Shown piece after piece: positions 2,190-63,991 of a stretch of DNA of 64,000 nucleotides. The stretch's first letter is position 1; every line of letters begins with the position of its first letter. The position numbers and the translations under genes are program-made. The stretch lies in the NCBI GenBank assembly GCA_020639315.1, contig JACKGM010000002.1:222321-286320 (forward strand), written 5' to 3'. This stretch comes from Candidatus Nomurabacteria bacterium. GTDB lineage: Bacteria; Patescibacteriota; Saccharimonadia; JAGOAT01. Below the pieces are notes generated by a model that did not search any database, was not told where the DNA came from, and saw only the letters and a list, made by a program, of their open reading frames with translations.

Positions 2190-4763
2190 TTACCTCCCAG
2201 AATATCTCTTGGGTTCAGGAATTTTGGCTGAATTTGCCCCGATCGATTGGCTAAAGGCATTTTGTCTGTTAATTGTTTTTTGAGCTTGGTTTTGCTTGGA
2301 GTTACCATGCTTCCTTTCGAGCATCCCTTGTAAGGAATTATTCTCCGACCTCACAGTGTTGGCTAGATTAGCCCAATCGAGAATTTTATTCTCTACTTCT
2401 TCTCTTCTACTCGAATACCTTTGTCTTGACAAACTTATTATTTTATTGCTTAAATCAAAACTTGGAGCTGGTACATCCAAAGTCTTCGCACTAAAAGGGA
2501 GGGTTGTCTGACCATCAATACTCATTGCTATATAAATATTTCTGATATCTAGATTGACTAGGTCCTCTTCACTAAAAACTGGTTTAAAGTACTTACTCAG
2601 ATACTCAGCATCATCGGCCCCGACCCTAAAAGTGATCATTGAGCCAACATTGCCAAATACTGCATCTCTGACTTCGTCTCGCATCTGAGAGACATACTGA
2701 TTGGCAACAGTCAGGTTTAGGGCATATTTTCTAGCTTCTGAGAGAATAACTGCAAACGACTCAGTAGCAAAATTTTGGAACTCGTCGACATAGAGATAAA
2801 ATGGTCGCCGATTGGCTGGTAAGGTATCCGCCCGACTCATTGCTGCTAATTGGATCTTAGTAATCATTAAAGCACCCAGAATACTAGCGTTATCTTCACC
2901 AATCAAACCCCTAGAAAGATCTACGATCAAGATCTTGCCTTGATCCATAATCTGACGAATATCAAAGCTGGACTTGGGCTGACCCAGCACATTTCTAATC
3001 AGTGGGTTGGCAGTAAAGGCTCCTACCTTATTTAAGATCGAAGAAGTAGCCTCAGAAGCAAATCTCTGATCCCAGCTCGCAAATTCATTGACCCAAAAGG
3101 CTTTGACTACTGGATCAGTCACATTATCAACCACTTTTTTTCGATACTTACTGTCAGTCAACATCCTGACTATTCCTAGCATCGTTGCGTCAGGATATTC
3201 AAGCAAAGCAAGCAGACAATATCGCAAAATATGCTCGAGTCTTGGACCCCAAGAATCAGCAAATATCTTATGTAATACCCCAATAATCTCTGAGGCTATA
3301 TGGGGTCTGAAGTTCGGATTTGTCACTTCCATAGGATTAAATGCAACTGGATTATCTCGATCGGATGGATTGAAATATACTACATCAGCAAGCCTTTGCT
3401 CAGGAATATAGCTCATCACATCTCTAGCCAGTTCCCCATGAGGGTCAATGATCGCAAAACCTTGATTGTGATAGATGTCAGAGATTGCCAGAAGGGTCAA
3501 AAGATAGGACTTACCAGACCCACTCTTCCCTATCACATAGAGGTGCCTTGCCCGATCAGACCTCTTAATCCCAAATTTTGCATTGTGTTGCCTAAACATT
3601 GTCTGACCGATCAGGCTAATATCAGCTTGATCAGCTTGGCTAACTATCGGCAAGGTTTGAGGCGGTTCAGCTTGCTTACTACCAGTCCAGGCAAGATTTG
3701 GTGTCTCGACCGAAGTATGTGGGAAATGAAAGAGACTAGCTAATTCTTCGGTATTTAGAATAAAACTATACCTAGTATCAAAGACTCGATTTTTAAAATC
3801 TTGATAATACTGCTCTCCTCTTTTGGTAGAACCAGCTCTAAACCCATTGAGCTGGGTGTTAAACTGTTTGAAACTTCCATATACTGCTTGAAGTTTAGCT
3901 TGAGCAAGGGATTGATCTCCGATATAAATTACCCTGATCATCACCTGAAAACCTAGCTTGGTTGCCTTCTCTTCTATCCCAGCGACCTGGCTAGTAGCCA
4001 GACTACTCAGCTTATCTGACTTATGTGACTCTTCAATCGAAACTGGACCAACCAATAAGGCATGAAACAAATCCCTAACCCAAGCCATTAGACCTGCTGG
4101 CAGATTTGCAAAACTACTGATCAAGGGTTTACCTGATCTGACCTTGGCAATCTCTTTTTGACTATCCTTGTGCCAATCATCAGATATTGGTCGTACAATC
4201 ATCTGGATTGCTAGATTTTGATCAGATTCTAAGCTAGATAAGACAGCCGTAATTCCCGATAATGGATCAACCTCAAAATTACTAAAAGTCTTAATCGGCA
4301 AATATTGACTATTTTTTAGCACTATCTCACTACCGATCGCCTTACCCTTCATCCCTTCTAAGTAGTCTGTCTGATGTTTAATTATCTGGACATTTGGATA
4401 CTGCGCATAGATTTGACCCTCGACATAGTTTTCCAATTTTTCAGGACAACGCAGATAAAAATAAATATTTTTAGACCCTACCAACTCGAAACTAAGTGAC
4501 TCCTGAAGTGCCATCCCTGATCTTAGCTCAGTCTTGCTTCTGAGTATCCCATGTAGACTGGCAAACATCTGCTCAGCAGCCAACTCTGATTTGTCGTTCT
4601 CCCTTGGTATAATAATTTGCAATAAAACAGACTTCTGATCCTCGACCAGTCTAATCTGACGGTTCTGGACTATGATCCGCCAAACCAAAAACCCAGCCAA
4701 AGGCAACCAGCCATAATAACGGATTAAAACGGTTAAAAAAAAGTTGAATATACCCTCAATCAT
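2190..4763 (-). CDS. VirD4/TraG/HerA-FtsK-superfamily membrane-anchored ATPase (type IV coupling-protein-like)
   Basis: N-terminal TM helices, Walker A GKSGSGKSYLL, Walker B FYLYVDEFQNF. Size and layout are typical of coupling ATPases. Confidence 0.65.
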   Translation of the reverse strand: MIEGIFNFFLTVLIRYYGWLPLAGFLVWRIIVQNRQIRLVEDQKSVLLQIIIPRENDKSELAAEQMFASLHGILRSKTELRSGMALQESLSFELVGSKNIYFYLRCPEKLENYVEGQIYAQYPNVQIIKHQTDYLEGMKGKAIGSEIVLKNSQYLPIKTFSNFEVDPLSGITAVLSSLESDQNLAIQMIVRPISDDWHKDSQKEIAKVRSGKPLISSFANLPAGLMAWVRDLFHALLVGPVSIEESHKSDKLSSLATSQVAGIEEKATKLGFQVMIRVIYIGDQSLAQAKLQAVYGSFKQFNTQLNGFRAGSTKRGEQYYQDFKNRVFDTRYSFILNTEELASLFHFPHTSVETPNLAWTGSKQAEPPQTLPIVSQADQADISLIGQTMFRQHNAKFGIKRSDRARHLYVIGKSGSGKSYLLTLLAISDIYHNQGFAIIDPHGELARDVMSYIPEQRLADVVYFNPSDRDNPVAFNPMEVTNPNFRPHIASEIIGVLHKIFADSWGPRLEHILRYCLLALLEYPDATMLGIVRMLTDSKYRKKVVDNVTDPVVKAFWVNEFASWDQRFASEATSSILNKVGAFTANPLIRNVLGQPKSSFDIRQIMDQGKILIVDLSRGLIGEDNASILGALMITKIQLAAMSRADTLPANRRPFYLYVDEFQNFATESFAVILSEARKYALNLTVANQYVSQMRDEVRDAVFGNVGSMITFRVGADDAEYLSKYFKPVFSEEDLVNLDIRNIYIAMSIDGQTTLPFSAKTLDVPAPSFDLSNKIISLSRQRYSSRREEVENKILDWANLANTVRSENNSLQGMLERKHGNSKQNQAQKTINRQNAFSQSIGANSAKIPEPKRYSGR

Positions 4764-12822: not shown

Positions 12823-12884
12823 TCGCGAACTGTTCGCGATTTTTACTAACTTACCAGATTACGAATGTCGCGAACAGTTCGCGA
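12823..12884. repeat. Palindrome doublet, family 2 (arm TCGCGAAC(T/A)GTTCGCGA x2, 28-nt spacer)
   Basis: Arms at 12823-12839 and 12868-12884, centres 45 bp apart. Confidence 0.9.
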
Positions 12885-29122: not shown

Positions 29123-29457
29123 GGGAGGTAGCTGGCTATAAGCCGAATTCTGTCCAACACATTTAGTGTCTGGATAATCATTTATCTTAGCGTCATACCC
29201 TTAGGCCAATTACTTGACCTAGACGGCGAGCAGCCTGGGTCCATTAGACTTGCAGCAGACAGGGTTTACCCCTAGATTATGTCGCCATAATCTACTGTGA
29301 GCTCTTACCTCACTCTTTTCACCCTTACCCGCAATGGGCGGTATTGTCTCTGTGGCACTTTCCCTAGGATTGCTCCTGGTCACAGTTAGTGACTGTCTTT
29401 GCTCTGAGCTGTTCGGACTTTCCTCCGCCAAAGCGGCGATTACCCACCAACTACCAT
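29123..29457 (-). ncRNA. rnpB: RNase P RNA, bacterial type A
   Basis: The minus strand contains GGAGGAAAGUCCGAAC (CR-I), GUGCCACAGAGACAAUACCGCC, GGUAAGGGUGAAAAGAGUGAGGUAAGAGCUCAC, GGUAAACCC and ACAGAAUUCGGCUUAU (CR-V). P1 pairs GGUAGUUGG with CCAGCUACC. Confidence 0.93.
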
Positions 29458-29463
29458 CCTAAA

Positions 29464-30117
29464 TTATAACTCATCGGTTTCGATTTGCTCAAGCAGTCGA
29501 AAGTCCAGCCACTCCTTGCCATATCCTCCCAAATAATAATGTAGTATTGAGTACAAATAATATCTTGGTTCTTTGCCCAGTCTCAATGGATATAATATTA
29601 GCTCTTTTATCACATTTTTTGACCTAGCATTTGTTTCTAATAGCAATTTATCTATGGTAAGTTCTTTTGATACACTAGGCATTGTATACGCAATACAATT
29701 TCTAAATTTTACAACATATTCATCAATGCAGATATCTTTACAGTTCTCAATCATTATCATAATTTTATTCGGTAATATACAAAATCCTAGTATTTTACAT
29801 CTTACTAAATCCTGGTTTTTAATCTTCATATCAGCTATATAATCTTCAAAGATTCCTGTTGCCATTCTGATAGCTTTGATTGCTTGCCAGTAATGGCTTG
29901 GTAACTTGAACAACAACTTACCCTTGGGCTGATCTTTGCATTTTACTTCTAGCAACCAAGAACTTAAAGCCAGTCTTGGCTGATCAATCTGATTAACTGC
30001 CTGGTTCTCTTGCTGAACCATTGACTGGTCAACTACCTGCCTCTTGATCCCTGCCCCTCCCCTTGCTTTTGCCCAATATTTCGTACAATACTTGTATACA
30101 TTTGCAATAGGGTCCAC
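29464..30117 (-). CDS. Decayed RAYT/IS200-like (Y1 HUH) homolog lacking the HUH histidines
   Basis: ILGFCILPNKIMIMI aligns to the family motif (a)yCLMPNHvHLL but with H->K and H->M. The C-terminal ELILYPLRLGKEPRYYLYS parallels YIHLNPVRAGLV..P.DY.WSS. No RYKS-type Tyr motif was seen. Confidence 0.45.
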   Translation of the reverse strand: MDPIANVYKYCTKYWAKARGGAGIKRQVVDQSMVQQENQAVNQIDQPRLALSSWLLEVKCKDQPKGKLLFKLPSHYWQAIKAIRMATGIFEDYIADMKIKNQDLVRCKILGFCILPNKIMIMIENCKDICIDEYVVKFRNCIAYTMPSVSKELTIDKLLLETNARSKNVIKELILYPLRLGKEPRYYLYSILHYYLGGYGKEWLDFRLLEQIETDEL

Positions 30118-30353: not shown

Positions 30354-30415
30354 TCGCGAACTGTTCGCGACTTTTGGTGCCTTCCCAGATTAGAAATGTC
30401 GCGAACTGTTCGCGT
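30354..30415. repeat. Palindrome doublet, family 2
   Basis: Arms at 30354-30370 and 30399-30415 (last base T), centres 45 bp apart. Confidence 0.9.
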
Positions 30416-36120: not shown

Positions 36121-36571
36121 TACATCCTCCGAATCCTCCTTGAGAAGGTTACGGGATCCAGTATCTATAGCATTGTCATCTTGCAAATACCAGAGGGTTT
36201 ACGGGGGATCCAGTATTCCAGCATTTGCATTGTCATCCTCCGAATTATCCTTAAGAGAATTACGGGGGATCCAGTATCTCGCATTGTCCTGACTCCTAAT
36301 ACAAATACTGGATCTCCGGTATTTCCCCAAGGGGAAATCCGAAGATGACAAGAGGGGATGGATCTCCCATAAACCCCTGCCGGATTTTGGAAGATGACGC
36401 GAAGAGGGGGCGGAAATTTGGGTTGATGACAGAGGGAGCATTGTCATCCTCCGAAACCCACCCCTCTCCTGTCATCCTCCGAAGTTCGGAGAACTTACGG
36501 GGGATCCAGTATTCCCGCATTTGCATTGTCATTCTCCGAATTCTCATGGAGAATTACGGGGGATCCAGTAT
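36121..36571. repeat. Hairpin-unit cluster 1 (class A units +, class B/C units -, plus half units)
   Basis: Units at 36121-36164, 36175-36216, 36231-36277, 36470-36512 and 36527-36571 (+), and at 36305-36350 and 36358-36398 (-). Half modules at 36399-36437 and 36442-36469. Confidence 0.9.
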
Positions 36572-36596
36572 CTCGCATTACCATGGGTCTAATTCA

Positions 36597-36721
36597 ATGA
36601 TTTTTATTGCGTGTTGGCAAAGCACGGCAAAGGATAACAGCCATATACTGCGCAGTGATTTATAAATTTGAGATAAAAAGGGTAGTTTTTACGCCATGAA
36701 ATTATATGGCAACAGGGTTAT
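36597..36721. repeat. ~125-nt conserved element, copy 1 (one terminal repeat only), directly downstream of ftsZ stop
   Basis: Shares ATGATTTTTATT..., AAA(A/G)CACG(A/G)CAAAG(C/G)ATAACAG, CTGCG(A/C)AGTG and the terminal TTATATGGCAACAGGGTTAT with 38715-38840. Confidence 0.6.
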
Positions 36722-36737
36722 CGAAGGAACAAGTCTA

Positions 36738-38225
36738 CTAAAGTTTCTCTTTAACAAAATCTGGCATATCAGAATCCGTACCATCAGAGGAGCTTAACTT
36801 AGAATTAAGACCTGATTTATTACTAGAGTTTCTCAAATAGGCAGGCTTATCAAACTCATCATCTTCAAAACTAGGGGTTTGAATACTAACAGTCTCTACC
36901 CTCTCTTCAACAATGTCAAATCCTGAACCCAAACCGGAACCATAGTCCATCTGGTCGGATTCCTGATTCTGCCTAGGCTCTTCTGGGTCTGATTTATGGC
37001 GCCTCAGTAGTCTACCCCCTAGACCAGTTTTACTTGACTGAGAACTAAGCTCTAACTCAGCACCAGACCCCAAGTCAGCATCAACCATTGCACTGATATC
37101 CTCACTTTGGGCACGGCGAATTTCAGCAACTTGATCATTTCTGCTTGACACCACATTACTACTATAGCTAGCGCTGGATTGAGCCTTGATGGTTGTATTG
37201 TAGCTAGAAGAACTACTACTATTACCAAAACCAAAGCTATTACTACCACCAACACTAGATCTGAGTGGCCTAGGCAAATCAAATCCAGTCGCTACTAAGG
37301 TCACTCGGATTTCACCAGTCATATTTTCATCCAAAACAGTACCCCAAATAATATTGGCCTCTGGGTCTACTTCATCATGGATTAGCTTAGCGGCCTCTTC
37401 GATCTCCTGCATACCAAGATCTCTACCCCCAGTGAAGTTAATCAGTACTCCCCTAGCACCATTGATCGAAACATCCAGTAGTGGAGAATCCATCGCTTGT
37501 CTGACTGCTAGGATTGCCCGATTGTCCCCAGATGCCTGACCGATACCCATTAGGGCTGAACCTGCATGCTCCATAATAGACTTGACATCAGCAAAATCTA
37601 GATTGACCAAGCCATTGATCGTAATCAGGTCTGATATACCCTGAATACCTTGATGCAAAATCTCATCTACAGTTGAAAATGCATCAATCAAAGAAGTCTT
37701 ATGGTCTATAATCTGAGAAATCTTATCATTGGGAATGATGATCAAGGTATCTACCTTGTCCCGAATCTCCTCGATCGCTCCCTCGGCAATCCTCCTTCTT
37801 CGATCCCCTTCAAAGCTAAAAGGCTTGGTCACTATACCGACTACCAGTGCTCCTACCTCTTTAGCAACCTTGGCAATAGTCGGGGCAGCACCAGAACCAG
37901 TACCACCACCAAATCCAGCAGTCAGAAACACCATCTCTGCGCCTTGTAATGCTTCCCTGATTTGTTCTTCATTTTCCTCGGCTGCCTGGCGACCGACATC
38001 AGGATTAGCTCCAGCCCCTAGCCCCTTGGTAGTATTCTTACCAATATGAAATTTATGAGCAGATTTTGAATAGTGCAAAGCTTGGGCATCGGTGTTAATT
38101 ACTATAAACTCTACCCCTTTAAGCTTAGATTGAATCATCCGATTGACTGCATTGCCCCCACCTCCGCCAATGCCTACTACTTTGATTCGAGCAAAAGTCT
38201 CGATTGCTGGCAAAATTTCTGCCAT
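36738..38225 (-). CDS. ftsZ: Cell division GTPase FtsZ (long disordered C-terminal linker)
   Basis: [13 protein letters not shown] and [12 protein letters not shown] tubulin signature. Confidence 0.97.
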
Positions 38226-38444
38226 TATTCCCTCCTATGATGTTATAAATTGCTAATGGTATTTTTATTTGGTTAGACTCCCGACCAATCAATTTGTATT
38301 GAACAGTAGTTATAAATACTAGTCTAAGCTAGTTGTTCAACAAATGCAAGTTTTTTATACACAAGTTTTTACTAACTTGATAAAGAGTACATATATTATT
38401 CATATCCTTCACTCTGATGTCAGCACAGGACTTTCGCACTTCCT

Positions 38445-38670
38445 TGTCATCCTCAAAAAATCTATGAGAGTTCAATTCAAATACTGAATATCCCATAATT
38501 TCTTACAGAAATTTGGAAGATGACGGTGCAATGCCATTAACTTAAGACTTTGTAAGTTTTATTCAATGTACAAGTCAAGCATTAGTAGAACTCCAAAAGG
38601 TACTGATCTCTCCTTAAGTTAACGGTATTGAGATGACACGGGGGGCGGAAATTTGGGCTATTGACAGAGG
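38445..38670. repeat. Hairpin-unit cluster 2, distal part
   Basis: 5' half unit at 38445; class C unit (-) at 38481-38525; degenerate unit (-) at 38600-38638; GGCGGAAATTTGGG module at 38639-38670. Confidence 0.8.
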
Positions 38671-38676
38671 AGGAAT

Positions 38677-38839
38677 TAACCCTGTTGCCATATAAACTTG
38701 CGAGGTCAAAGCTGATGATTTTTATTCCAGAATACCAAAACACGACAAAGCATAACAGGAGTTACGCTGCGAAGTGTTTTGCTAGTCTGGGGCAAAAATG
38801 GCAGTTTTGAAGCCGTGAGGTTATATGGCAACAGGGTTA
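38677..38839. mobile_element. ~163-bp element with perfect 19-bp terminal inverted repeats (MITE-like), copy 2 of the 125-nt element
   Basis: TAACCCTGTTGCCATATAA (38677-38695) and TTATATGGCAACAGGGTTA (38821-38839). The interior is homologous to 36597-36701. Confidence 0.65.
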
Positions 38840-38840
38840 T

Positions 38841-38993
38841 TGTCATCCTCCGAAACCCGAAGGGTTTACGGGGGATCCAGTATTCGGCATTGCGCATTGT
38901 CATCCTCCGAAGTTCGGAGAACTTACGGGGGATCCAGTATTTCAGTATTTGTCAAATCAAAAATCAAGGGAATTTACAAAAAAAAACCAGTAT
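38841..38993. repeat. Hairpin-unit cluster 2, ftsA-proximal part
   Basis: Class A units (+) at 38841-38883 and 38898-38940, with a degenerate TGTCA...CCAGTAT remnant to ~38993. It ends 2 nt before the ftsA stop codon. Confidence 0.85.
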
Positions 38994-54116: not shown

Positions 54117-54178
54117 TCGCGAACTGTTCGCGATTTTTAGCACCTTTCCAGATTAGAGATGTCGCGAACTGTTCGCGA
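54117..54178. repeat. Palindrome doublet, family 2 (upstream flank of RAYT-like gene)
   Basis: Arms at 54117-54133 and 54162-54178, centres 45 bp apart. Confidence 0.9.
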
Positions 54179-54295
54179 AATTTATTAAATATTTATACAT
54201 AACACGATACTTATGCTTGCAAATAACCCCAAAACAGTTAAGATATGACTAACTTCGTTATCTTTATAGTCCACTACTAAAATGGTTTAAATCTC

Positions 54296-54850
54296 ATGTC
54301 CGCCAGAAACACCTACAGATACAAGGTCGATAATACATTTTTGCATATATACTCTCGTGCCAATAATAAAGTTCCAGTATTTATCAATCAGAAATACTTT
54401 GATAAATTCTTAGATATCTTACTATTTTTACTTACGACTGATGACAATTTAGCCGACTCCCTTAGGTTATTTAGTAGACCTAGAAAACCATGTCAAAACT
54501 TTTCCAAAAATATCAACCTCGTGTCTTTCTGCATAATGAACAATCACTATCACCTTATAATCTATATTAAAGATAGTGATAAGTTACCAAAATTCATGCA
54601 TTTGTTTCACAGAAAACTTACACAAATTATCAACTCTGATCAAAATAAAGTTGGTCATCTGATGCAAAGTAGGTACAAATCTAGACCAATATTATCAGAA
54701 GTAGACTTGCTAAATGTATCTGCCTATATTCAACTAAACCCAAATGAAATTCATCCACAAGATAGCAACTACTACCTCAGATACCCCTTCTCTTCGCTCA
54801 ATTCAACTCATATGATTTCTAAAGTAGTCAGTACTAATATGATTTTTTAG
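54296..54850 (+). CDS. IS200/RAYT-like Y1 HUH transposase (REP-associated tyrosine transposase-like)
   Basis: FCIMNNHYHLIIY (HUH), GHLMQSRYKS (catalytic Tyr context), AYIQLNPNE...YYLRYPFSS tail. AT-rich gene flanked by family-2 doublets on both sides. Confidence 0.7.
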   Translation: MSARNTYRYKVDNTFLHIYSRANNKVPVFINQKYFDKFLDILLFLLTTDDNLADSLRLFSRPRKPCQNFSKNINLVSFCIMNNHYHLIIYIKDSDKLPKFMHLFHRKLTQIINSDQNKVGHLMQSRYKSRPILSEVDLLNVSAYIQLNPNEIHPQDSNYYLRYPFSSLNSTHMISKVVSTNMIF

Positions 54851-54992
54851 GTACACCAGTATTTCAAAGCAACAATATCTTGAATATCTTAATGCCAAAT
54901 CCAAGGATTTTGCAGAATATCAAATTATCAAAAAATCCCTATAGTAAATGATGGAAATTATCAAAATACAATATATTATGCAATATTTTTTG

Positions 54993-55054
54993 TCGCGAAC
55001 TGTTCGCGATTTTTAGCACCTTACCAGATTAGAGATGTCGCGAACTGTTCGCGA
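54993..55054. repeat. Palindrome doublet, family 2 (downstream flank of RAYT-like gene; overlaps 3' end of nadD)
   Basis: Arms at 54993-55009 and 55038-55054, centres 45 bp apart. The nadD stop codon (55029-55031) lies in the spacer. Confidence 0.9.
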
Positions 55055-55634
55055 AAAGTTGATTTTTGGTGATGTAGTCAAGGACTGGCTGGCTGAGTCC
55101 TTGGGGAGCTTGGCGATTGGCTAATTGTTGGCGGATTTGGGTGGCTGAAGTCAAATCATCTATCATTGCGACCTCTTGATATCTCAGACTAGGAATGGAT
55201 CGAAGTTTTGCCTGGATTTGTTTTGACTGATGATGATAACCTGCTCGCTTAATCCAGACGAAACCTACTCGATGTTCGAGTAGATAATCTAGCCCCTGCC
55301 ACTGATCGAGATTGGTAATCCCGTCACTACCCAAAACAATATCGACCTTAAGACCCTTGCCATAGATCTCAAACAAATCCTCCACTACCTGATAATCTAT
55401 TACTCTGGCTTCTGACTGAAAGTCATACTTATCGAGCACCGCTTGTCTATTGCCCAATCCCAATCTCAGCATTGCTTTACGATCGTCAAAACCAACTAAA
55501 CCTGCCAAGTTCCTCCGATTCTCGAGCAAGATTATTACCTCATCATAGTCCCTTGATGATAGATAGTCTACTACTGCGAGATGCCCCTGATGAACGGGGT
55601 TAAAACTTCCTGAGTACAAGGCTAGCTGGTTCAA
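55029..55634 (-). CDS. nadD: Nicotinate-nucleotide adenylyltransferase
   Basis: YSGSFNPVHQGHL motif. The last 8 codons (FANSSRHL*) are encoded by the repeat. Confidence 0.85.
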   Translation of the reverse strand: MNQLALYSGSFNPVHQGHLAVVDYLSSRDYDEVIILLENRRNLAGLVGFDDRKAMLRLGLGNRQAVLDKYDFQSEARVIDYQVVEDLFEIYGKGLKVDIVLGSDGITNLDQWQGLDYLLEHRVGFVWIKRAGYHHQSKQIQAKLRSIPSLRYQEVAMIDDLTSATQIRQQLANRQAPQGLSQPVLDYITKNQLFANSSRHL

Positions 55635-62410: not shown

Positions 62411-62527
62411 CGTCTTATCTTACCACAAAACCCCGCCCAATAGAATTAAATCTAAACGAACCTTACCGGCCAAATCAACCCTCTTTTTCTTTCTTTGGGC
62501 TTGCGTTATGGCAGTTTACAATACAAA

Positions 62528-62963
62528 ATACTGGATCCCCCGTAAGTTCTCCGAACTTCGGAAGATGACAGAAGAGGGACAGGTTTCGGAGGATGACAGG
62601 AGTTGGTCACCAAACCAAATTTCCGCTCTCTCCGCGTGTCATCTTCCAAAATCCCTTACTCCTCGCGTGTCATCTTCGGATTTCCCTTTAGGGAAATACC
62701 GGAGATCCAGTATCTGGATTGGATTCCAAAAATGCGAAATGCTGGATCCCCCGTAAGTTCTCCGAACTTCGGAGGATGACAATCCCCTTCCCGTGTCATC
62801 TTCGGATTTCCCCTTGGGGGAATACCGGAGATCCAGTATCTGGATTGGATTCCAGAAATGCGAAATGCTAGATCCCCCGTAAGTTCTCCGAACTTCGGAG
62901 GATGACAATGCCCTTTTGTGTCATCTTCCAAATTTCCGTAGGAAATTATGGGAGATCCAGTAT
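62528..62963. repeat. Hairpin-unit cluster 3 (class A units -, class B/C units +; 125-126 bp higher-order period)
   Basis: Units at 62528-62570(-), 62668-62713(+), 62739-62781(-), 62794-62839(+), 62865-62907(-) and 62919-62963(+). Half modules at 62571-62598, 62608-62636 and 62637-62667. Confidence 0.9.
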
Positions 62964-63270
62964 TTGAACCACAAATTTTAATAACCTGAACACAATATTT
63001 ATTTTTGATTTTTTGTGACTATAAATGAGTACCAAATTAGCTACAATATTAACTATTGGCTAGAGTAAAATATTTACTCAGCCTTCAGCCAAACACCTAG
63101 CAAACAATTTTGGTATGAATAATAATTGATTTCCCTAGCTAAAACGCTAGAGAGACTAGCTGTACTAGTTTTTACTATGGATTTTTGACACCGACTTAGT
63201 CCGCAATCATATGCCAATGTATCCATTCAGATTATTATTTTTTTTAACTTACTTACTCCCTAAATATAGG

Positions 63271-63847
63271 ATACCCAAAACCAAACCGGACAATTTGGGA
63301 CTACTAATAAAGAGTTGGAAAGTTAGTTCATTTTATGAACCTTACTTATCTATTTAAGCCAAAATATTAAAATACCGCTATGTCGCAAAATATTATTTAC
63401 TATTACCTTTACCCCCAAGTATTCTCTTCTCTTTTGCCATCCTCCGAGTAGCTAGCTCTGTTTATTGTCATCCTCCGAAACCTGTCCCTTCTTTCTACCG
63501 CCCTCCGAAGTTCGGAGAACTTACGGGGGATCCAGTATTCCCGCATTTGCATTGTCATCCTCCGAAACCCGAAGGGTTTACGTGGGATCCAGTATTTTGC
63601 ATTCCTGAGGCTCAACTCAAATACTGGATCTCCCATAATTTCCTACGGAAATTTGGAAGATGACTAGAGGAGAGTATTGTCATCCTCCGAAGTTTGGAGA
63701 ACTTACGGGGGATCCAGTATTTTGTATCTGGAGTCATCAACAAAAGACAAGTTGGTTTTAGGTTAAGATTAGTATCCATAGTATACCCAAAACAAAACCA
63801 GCATTAGTAGTCCCAAATTGTCTGGTTTTGGTTTGGACATGCTATAG
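63271..63847. mobile_element. Long member of the MITE family (~577 bp) enclosing hairpin-unit cluster 4
   Basis: Left arm CCCAAAACCAAACCGGACAATTTGGGACTACTA (63274-63306) and right arm TAGTAGTCCCAAATTGTCTGGTTTTGGTTTGG (63805-63836). The left ~75 nt align with the short MITE left half, and the element ends ...ACATGCTAT. Confidence 0.6.
63434..63720. repeat. Hairpin-unit cluster 4
   Basis: Class A units (+) at ~63499-63538, 63553-63595 and 63678-63720. Class C unit (-) at 63621-63665. Half modules at 63434 and 63466. Confidence 0.85.
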
Positions 63848-63991
63848 ATATAATATTGAGTTTTATTCTACACTATTGCTCTAAATCTTTAACCTTATTG
63901 CAGGCAATGCCAGAAACTTTTGCAAATGTAAACTAAATCAGCTATGATATTGACATAAGGGGTTCTGATCAATTTAAAGGAGAAAACCTAT

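Follow-up and report, generated by a model that had tools for sequence, protein, structure and literature searches.

What kind of repeat makes up the array at positions 62528-62963 of the 64-kb window (the whole stretch of Patescibacteria DNA analysed here, 64,000 nt), and what sort of enzyme is it likely to be matched with? The array is built of short hairpin units of classes A, B and C. The first-pass annotation had read it as a BIME-like mosaic in which A units face the opposite way to B and C units and a composite of the two is repeated every 125-126 bp, and had taken it as a sign of an independent REP/BIME-type system in this lineage. On re-reading of the sequence, all of its coordinates for this array, which we call cluster 3, were correct (Table 1). 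The TGTCATC heads at 62668, 62794 and 62919 are spaced by 126 and 125 nt; the B and A units of a pair are separated by a conserved 25-nt linker with the A/G difference described, CTGGATTGGATTCCA(A/G)AAATGCGAA; successive pairs are joined by a short C-rich linker; and in the third module copy a C unit replaces B. Tandem Repeats Finder reports a period of 126 over 62666-62963 (2.4 copies, 87% matches), and module copies 1 and 2 share 94% identity. The tandem duplication seen in cluster 3 is recent.

Table 1. Repeat units, fragments and linkers of the four intergenic clusters (positions in the window; for units of class A on the - strand, TGTC lies on that strand).
Feature	Position	Strand	Basis or remark
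Cluster 1, between nrdR and ftsZ	36121-36571	both	covariance model
Cluster 1 full A units	36121, 36174, 36231, 36470, 36527	+	covariance model
Cluster 1 B unit	36305-36350	-	covariance model
Cluster 1 C-like unit	36359-36399	-	covariance model
Cluster 1 E-type head	ends at 36431	-	element census
Cluster 1 A head	36442	+	element census
Cluster 2, between ftsZ and ftsA	38445-38940	both	covariance model
Cluster 2 A head	38445	+	element census
Cluster 2 C unit	38481-38525	-	covariance model
Cluster 2 degenerate unit	38596-38638	-	element census
Cluster 2 E-type head	38643-38675	-	element census
Cluster 2 full A units	38841-38883, 38898-38940	+	covariance model
Cluster 3 complete A-type unit TGTCATCTTCCGAAGTTCGGAGAACTTACGGGGGATCCAGTAT	62528-62570	-	covariance model, 70.2 bits
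Cluster 3 head-only A fragment TGTCATCCTCCGAAACCTGTCCCT	62575-62598	-	directly 5' of full A unit; 100% complementary to 63466-63489
Cluster 3 head-only E-type fragment TGGTCACCAAACCAAATTTCCGCTCTCTCCGCG	62604-62636	+	direct reading; homologous to - strand fragments in clusters 1 and 2
Cluster 3 head-only C-type fragment TGTCATCTTCCAAAATCCC...	62637-62667	+	repeat comparison
Cluster 3 complete B unit, module copy 1	62668-62713	+	67.4 bits; fits the SRM pattern once a longer loop is allowed
Cluster 3 tail-to-tail linker, 25 nt, CTGGATTGGATTCCAAAAATGCGAA	62714-62738	.	sequence and module alignment
Cluster 3 complete A unit	62739-62781	-	covariance model, 70.9 bits
Cluster 3 head-to-head linker, 12 nt, C-rich, ATCCCCTTCCCG	62782-62793	.	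sequence
Cluster 3 complete B unit, copy 2	62794-62839	+	covariance model, 66.7 bits
Cluster 3 tail-to-tail linker, copy 2	62840-62864	.	sequence; A>G at one position relative to CTGGATTGGATTCCAAAAATGCGAA
Cluster 3 complete A unit	62865-62907	-	covariance model, 68.9 bits
Cluster 3 head-to-head linker, 11 nt, C-rich	62908-62918	.	sequence
Cluster 3 complete C unit, third, partial module copy	62919-62963	+	71.2 bits; 100% complementary to 63617-63664
Cluster 4	63435-63720	both	covariance model
Cluster 4 A-type heads	63435, 63466	+	element census
Cluster 4 full A units	63496-63538, 63553-63595, 63678-63720	+	covariance model
Cluster 4 full C unit	63621-63665	-	covariance model

All classes are variants of one design and differ in the inner stem. 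A unit reads TGTC, AT plus 6 bp of outer stem, an inner stem of 5-7 bp with its loop, a bulged A, the returning 6 bp plus AT, and finally CCAGTAT; the inner loop has 3-5 nt, and 12-20 nt lie between the halves of the 8-bp outer stem. Columns 9-44 form an A-T pair and columns 10-43 a T-A pair, each in 18 of the 19 aligned units. The outer stems of the classes differ by compensatory substitutions (5' half and 3' half: CCTCCG and CGGGGG in class A, CTTCGG and CCGGAG in class B, CTTCCA and TGGGAG in class C). Fifteen of the 20 complete units carry the 5' tag TGTC, two CGTC and one AGTC, with degraded heads at 36121 and 63496. Of the 19 aligned units, 17 have CCAG on the 3' side of the stem, one has CTAG and one TCAG; the GTC and the C after the stem are invariant or at least 90% conserved in the alignment.

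In the 19-unit alignment 96.7% of the cells hold standard pairs and 9 of the 15 pairs show double-sided, compensatory changes; none of 500 shuffles equalled the observed covariation score, and controls with a slid 3' partner were paired to no more than 59%. Outer-stem position 5 is a T·G wobble in 19/19 units. The opposite strand would have a C·A mismatch at this position and, accordingly, folding as ssDNA favours the TGTC strand over its complement by 1.5-1.6 kcal/mol. The hairpin is under selection and strand-specific: it folds on one strand only, framed by unpaired (T/C)GTC and CCAG(TAT). As far as can be judged from sequence, this asymmetry would fit an enzyme whose cleavage is restricted to one strand.

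With a covariance model made from 19 units, 20 complete ones are detected in the whole 64-kb window (43-46 nt each, E 1e-6 to 1e-19). Every one of them falls in one of four intergenic clusters, 36121-36571, 38445-38940, 62528-62963 and 63435-63720, and outside these the same scan of the 64 kb gave no convincing unit. The end motif GATCCAGTAT, with at most one mismatch, has 30 matches in the window against 4.9 expected, and the head motif TGTCATCYTCS has 26 against 4.1. About ten head-only or degenerate fragments accompany the full units, mostly directly 5' of one.

The head-only fragments have a recognizable form: the tag is followed by the 5' half-stem and by a spacer that is short or CCCTCT-like, and a complete unit comes immediately downstream (in the window, for example, 36442, 62575-62598 and 63466-63489). 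They are also found in unrelated phyla (loci L004 2274-2343, L013, L014 2971-3016, L021 ~2843-2866 and L002 ~4104-4123), sometimes in 21-nt tandem copies. Such fragments may have been left behind by cleavage and repair, or by slippage at the nuclease site.

Arrays of this kind raise the suspicion of collapsed or chimeric repeats in the assembly, and short-read contigs do break at them: L009 stops 2 nt short of 62528, and both L019 and L020 terminate within unit 36527. Nevertheless, we hold an artefact to be extremely unlikely. The stretch 36550-38704 is present at 100% identity in two independent Logan assemblies, together with the C, degenerate and E-type elements of cluster 2 (38226-38704 is matched at 100% identity by Logan contig L019), and the differences between units are ordered and compensatory, which collapse would not give.

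The surroundings of the clusters contain other features. Positions 62964-63434 are an AT-rich non-coding spacer of 470 bp that separates the inverted clusters 3 and 4; it holds no ORF of 60 aa or more and no Rfam match, and its promoter and terminator counts are at chance level. Cluster 4 is bracketed by a 44-nt inverted repeat, TATAGGATACCCAAAACCAAACCGGACAATTTGGGACTACTAAT (63265-63308 and 63803-63846, 86% complementary), a third and unrelated repeat that occurs in the window at these two sites only and has a local 29-nt hairpin (63773-63801 and 63822-63850) at its right arm. At the gathering threshold the sole Rfam match in the window is a class A bacterial RNase P RNA (29123-29455, - strand, 206.9 bits), and the repeat units match no Rfam family; two copies of a 25-nt tandem repeat lie ~320 bp from this RNA, at 29778-29826. 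A blastn search of PLSDB plasmids with 62500-63000 gave no match.

The orientation rule holds throughout the window. A and B/C elements lie on opposite strands in all four clusters, with no exception among 18 A-type (13 full, 5 head-only) and 12 B/C/E-type elements (7 full, 1 degenerate, 4 head-only), and the first-pass annotation was also right that A is on the + strand in clusters 1, 2 and 4 and on the - strand in cluster 3. An [A]-linker-[inverted B/C] tail-to-tail module can be aligned across the four clusters, part of the linker included. Because this module is homologous between clusters and cluster 3 has been duplicated, the effective sample is a few founding modules, not 30 elements, and the rule is largely the inheritance of one composite module: it is real, but it carries modest statistical weight. 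The building block that has been dispersed has ~120 nt and is a heterodimer joined tail-to-tail, [A]-25 nt-[B or C, inverted]; the 126-bp higher-order repeat is this block plus the head-to-head linker, tandemly duplicated. The composite module is predicted to fold into a multi-branch hairpin (z-scores -4.2 to -5.9).

Two stem classes are paired tail-to-tail in unrelated loci as well (L001, L014, L021, L006/L015 and L008). Together with the preference for heterodimers reported by Di Nocera 2013, this makes the link between class and orientation a trait of the family, not a peculiarity of the lineage. Using two stem classes for the two orientations would avoid the perfect long palindromes, themselves unstable, that inverted copies of an identical unit would form, and the alternation would offer a correctly oriented cleavable site on each strand. 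GC skew is negative throughout 1-64000 (-0.07 to -0.26) and the majority of genes are on the - strand, so that strand is probably the leading one. Unit orientation is not tied to replication direction, since clusters 3 and 4, ~500 bp apart, carry A in opposite orientations.

A module conserved at four loci together with its linker, and ending in the inverted termini TGTCATC...GATGACA, might also be a MITE, that is, a ~120-nt non-autonomous transposon whose terminal inverted repeats would be the units, mobilized by a DDE enzyme. We regard this as highly unlikely: direct reading reveals no target-site duplication at the module ends, units also occur singly, in direct tandem and as heads only, the scanned ORFs of the window include no DDE transposase, and the compensatory changes preserve the hairpins within units, not pairing from arm to arm.

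To which family do the units belong? The annotation's statement that they are unrelated in sequence to the enterobacterial GTAG-tagged REPs was borne out; GTAG or CTAC is found at none of the unit ends. Its BIME-like reading stands in so far as the array consists of oriented hairpins of two classes in alternation, joined by conserved linkers and repeated in tandem at a higher order. The independence of the system is the part that fails: since the units bear the defining flanks of a pan-bacterial superfamily, the CGTC/TGTC-tagged REPs (TGTC/CGTC tag, AT-first stem, CCA(G) tail), the system is not independent to the lineage. We think it likely that they are a long-stemmed variant of these REPs, which are the Ssn-related motifs (SRM), the family that includes Neisseria dRS3/NTS and Rickettsia RPE-4/-6.

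According to Di Nocera 2013 (PMC3733652), a CGTC REP has a CGTC, often TGTC, tag, an 8-9 bp stem that is almost invariably AT-first, a loop of 4-5 nt (CGTC-1 to -4, with atypical loops in a few hosts) and a CCA tail. The families CGTC-1 to -4, including dRS3 and Rickettsia RPE-4/RPE-6, were reported from five phyla, with big clusters in Neisseria and Wolbachia. Heterodimers are frequent and preferred, dimers are mainly head-to-head and head-to-tail arrangements are negligible; a dedicated transposase was not found. Chenal 2025 (PMC11893778) generalized the NTS repeats as SRM, spatially linked to ssnA, a gene for a small single-domain GIY-YIG protein (cd10448) that often has the motifs on its flanks. 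SsnA binds and cuts the motif as ssDNA only, on one strand only and upstream of the hairpin, and does not bind RNA. The critical bases are the GTC before the palindrome, for cleavage, and the C after it, for binding; loop identity is dispensable and complementary loop extensions are tolerated.

The window units have the tag, the AT-first 8-bp stem and the CCA tail of a CGTC REP, and the GTC and post-stem C that are critical in SRM, but in place of a 4-5 nt loop they have 12-20 nt with a nested stem. As published, the SRM pattern HGTCWYN(0-2)YYVSBRHN(0-5)WNVSBRGN(0-2)RNCYNB (PMC11893778) has no match in the window. With the loop alone relaxed from N(0-5) to N(0-25), it matches 13 of the 20 units against 0.7 expected. 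The pattern thus misses these units because a nested stem-loop replaces the short loop, and its failure is confined to loop length.

If the units act as RNA, they could be transcript stabilizers, processing sites or attenuators of nrdR-ftsZ-ftsA and neighbouring genes. The clusters are intergenic, clusters 1 and 2 lie between co-directional genes, in RNA the invariant T·G would become G·U, and many REPs are thought to act in mRNA (PMC3733652). Still, such a role seems improbable to us. The units match no Rfam family, a T tail of the terminator type is absent from their hairpins and the scan for terminators was at chance level; each cluster has units in both orientations, so that any one transcript would include some of them in the non-folding sense; and SsnA does not bind RNA (PMC11893778).

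The window does encode a single HUH protein. The gene at 54296-54850 (+) specifies a Y1/HUH (IS200/RAYT-like) protein of 184 aa with an H-Y-H motif, scoring 33 bits for Pfam Y1_Tnp (cut-off 23) and 42.7 bits for NCBIfam REP_Tyr_transpos, below the cut-off of 80. It is bracketed (54117-55056) by a 64-nt direct repeat, 98% identical, whose palindromes are TCGCGAACWGTTCGCGA doublets: each copy has two TCGCGAACTGTTCGCGA palindromes, 45 nt apart. Further intergenic TCGCGAACTGTTCGCGA doublets lie at 12823-12884 and 30354-30415. The gene and these doublets are a separate REPIN/RAYT-like or IS200-like system.

That a RAYT, an HUH tyrosine transposase, recognizes the A, B and C hairpins and spreads them as REPIN-like doublets would agree with the BIME-like alternation of the mosaic, with inverted doublets that fold into long hairpins and with the presence of a Y1/HUH gene in the window. 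We nonetheless find it very improbable. The HUH gene is flanked on both sides by the other palindrome, which has its own copies at 12823 and 30354, and the existence of this separate system speaks against an HUH enzyme for the A/B/C units. None of the TGTCAT units is near the gene, and the cognate HUH enzyme flanked by units that had been suggested at first is unlikely; GTAG, the tag of REPs associated with RAYTs, is missing from the units, and Di Nocera (PMC3733652) found no dedicated transposase for CGTC REPs.

The SRM reading points instead to a GIY-YIG single-strand nuclease, the partner known for this superfamily. A GIY-YIG/Ssn-like ORF was found in the 64-kb window neither by motif regex, nor by tblastn with a Phycisphaerae homologue (locus L002), nor by Pfam on 28 ORFs. 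We scanned genome and metagenome contigs with the pattern TGTCATCYTC-N(24-34)-GGRGATCCAGTAT and obtained 17 single-unit loci (8 on genome contigs and 9 on metagenome contigs), all from other lineages, among them Phycisphaerae, Rickettsiales, Neisseriaceae and several candidate-phyla-radiation MAGs; viral contigs gave no match to the pattern. The TGTCAT-hairpin-ATCCAGTAT design recurs in these loci, though the identity of the flanks is not independent evidence, since the scan pattern itself fixed them. The long-loop units adjoin canonical 28-nt hairpins such as TGTCATCCCCGCGCAGGCGGGGATCCAG and CGTCATTCCCGCGCAGGCGGGAATCCAG, the latter of the Neisseria dRS3/NTS type, and a GIY-YIG gene is adjacent in two loci.

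In the Phycisphaerae (L002/L017) the gene encodes a 95-aa GIY-YIG protein (PF01541, E = 2e-15) flanked by three units, and its Y7, Y18 and E65 align with Y6, Y17 and E64 of SsnA, residues that were mutated in that enzyme (PMC11893778). In a Daviesbacteria contig of the candidate phyla radiation (L021), a 93-aa homologue has units of the short-loop, long-loop and head-only kinds on its flanks, and Ssn/SRM systems thus exist in this radiation. A homologue search with the L002 protein returned at least 8000 candidates; among the matches listed, most of the Ssn-like ones are on contigs below 2 kb, which is what repeats on both sides of a gene would lead one to expect. The sole match in a PDB sequence search was a distant UPF0213 GIY-YIG structure, 1zg2.

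From the homology to systems studied in vitro, those of Neisseria and Wolbachia among them, we propose that a small single-domain GIY-YIG nuclease of the Ssn family is encoded elsewhere in the genome. This putative Ssn would bind the base of the hairpin and its flanks in the ssDNA state, be it on incoming transforming DNA or on replication or repair intermediates, and would nick a few nt upstream of the tag. Nicking would in turn reduce recombination across the flanked loci and probably seed local duplication. A bolder version, which we consider rather unlikely, makes the ~120-nt heterodimer a self-propagating, REPIN-like replicator with a GIY-YIG Ssn as its enzyme, classes A, B and C being matched to distinct Ssn paralogues or specificities. 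Were that true, it would be a second, mechanistically independent symbiosis of the REPIN/BIME type, thriving in the reduced genomes of Patescibacteria and bracketing core genes such as ftsZ.

Patescibacteria are believed to depend strongly on DNA uptake, and an ssDNA restriction system acting on imported DNA would matter to their biology. Our reading extends the CGTC/SRM family to candidate-phyla-radiation bacteria in a form that the published pattern misses, a nested, covarying 15-bp bipartite stem. SRM-type repeats here form mosaics of the BIME/NIME kind in which class and orientation are strictly linked, and their arrays can bracket essential genes (nrdR-ftsZ-ftsA). Judging by their sequences, such natural long-stem variants could widen the substrate range for Ssn enzymes as ssDNA tools. 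There is also a practical side. Short-read contigs of the same organism (L009, L019, L020, L022 and L023, from MAG GCA_020428505.1 and Logan runs SRR12358676, SRR28385526 and SRR28385528) end exactly at SRM arrays or at TCGCGAAC palindromes, Logan contig L022 at the 64-nt repeat flanking the Y1/HUH gene; these arrays and palindromes systematically fragment metagenome assemblies. The Ssn/SRM system was first described in 2025, mainly from Pseudomonadati, in a paper that does not mention Patescibacteria (PMC11893778).

How does the array compare with known systems? With BIMEs and NIMEs it shares oriented palindrome mosaics, alternating orientation, conserved linkers and higher-order tandem amplification. 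The units of BIMEs, however, are GTAG-tagged REPs tied to HUH RAYTs and unrelated in sequence to ours, and in NIMEs dRS3 is interleaved with RS repeats of 50-150 bp, whereas the linkers here have merely 11-27 nt. REPINs (Bertels and Rainey 2011, PMC3116915) likewise have as their dispersed unit an inverted hairpin doublet with a short spacer, but they are tied to RAYT genes; the GTAG REPs and the N. punctiforme REP (gttgggtttcgttcc...) of that study are unrelated to the window units, and we rejected kinship to the latter, RAYT-linked repeat on these grounds. With CGTC-1 to -4 the shared features are the CGTC/TGTC tag, the AT-first 8-bp stem, the CCA tail, heterodimers and big clusters. In contrast to the mostly head-to-head dimers of the literature, tail-to-tail dimers dominate here; direct head-to-tail A-A tandems at 57-nt spacing, negligible there, are common here, and the host phylum is outside the five reported by Di Nocera. 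NTS (CGTCATTCCCGCGMAVGCGGGAATCYRG) and the other SRM have loops of 3-5 nt and units of 28 nt, whereas our units, of 43-46 nt, have a bulged A and a nested stem-loop of 5-7 bp, a tail extended to CCAGTAT and three to five covarying stem classes, in a patescibacterial host and a window without an ssn gene. What the two have in common is the (C/T)GTC tag, AT at the start and end of the stem, a 3' C-Y-R-G tail (here CCAG), strand-specific orientation, intergenic clusters that bracket genes (here ftsZ), and the very positions critical for SsnA, the GTC for cleavage and the C after the palindrome for binding.
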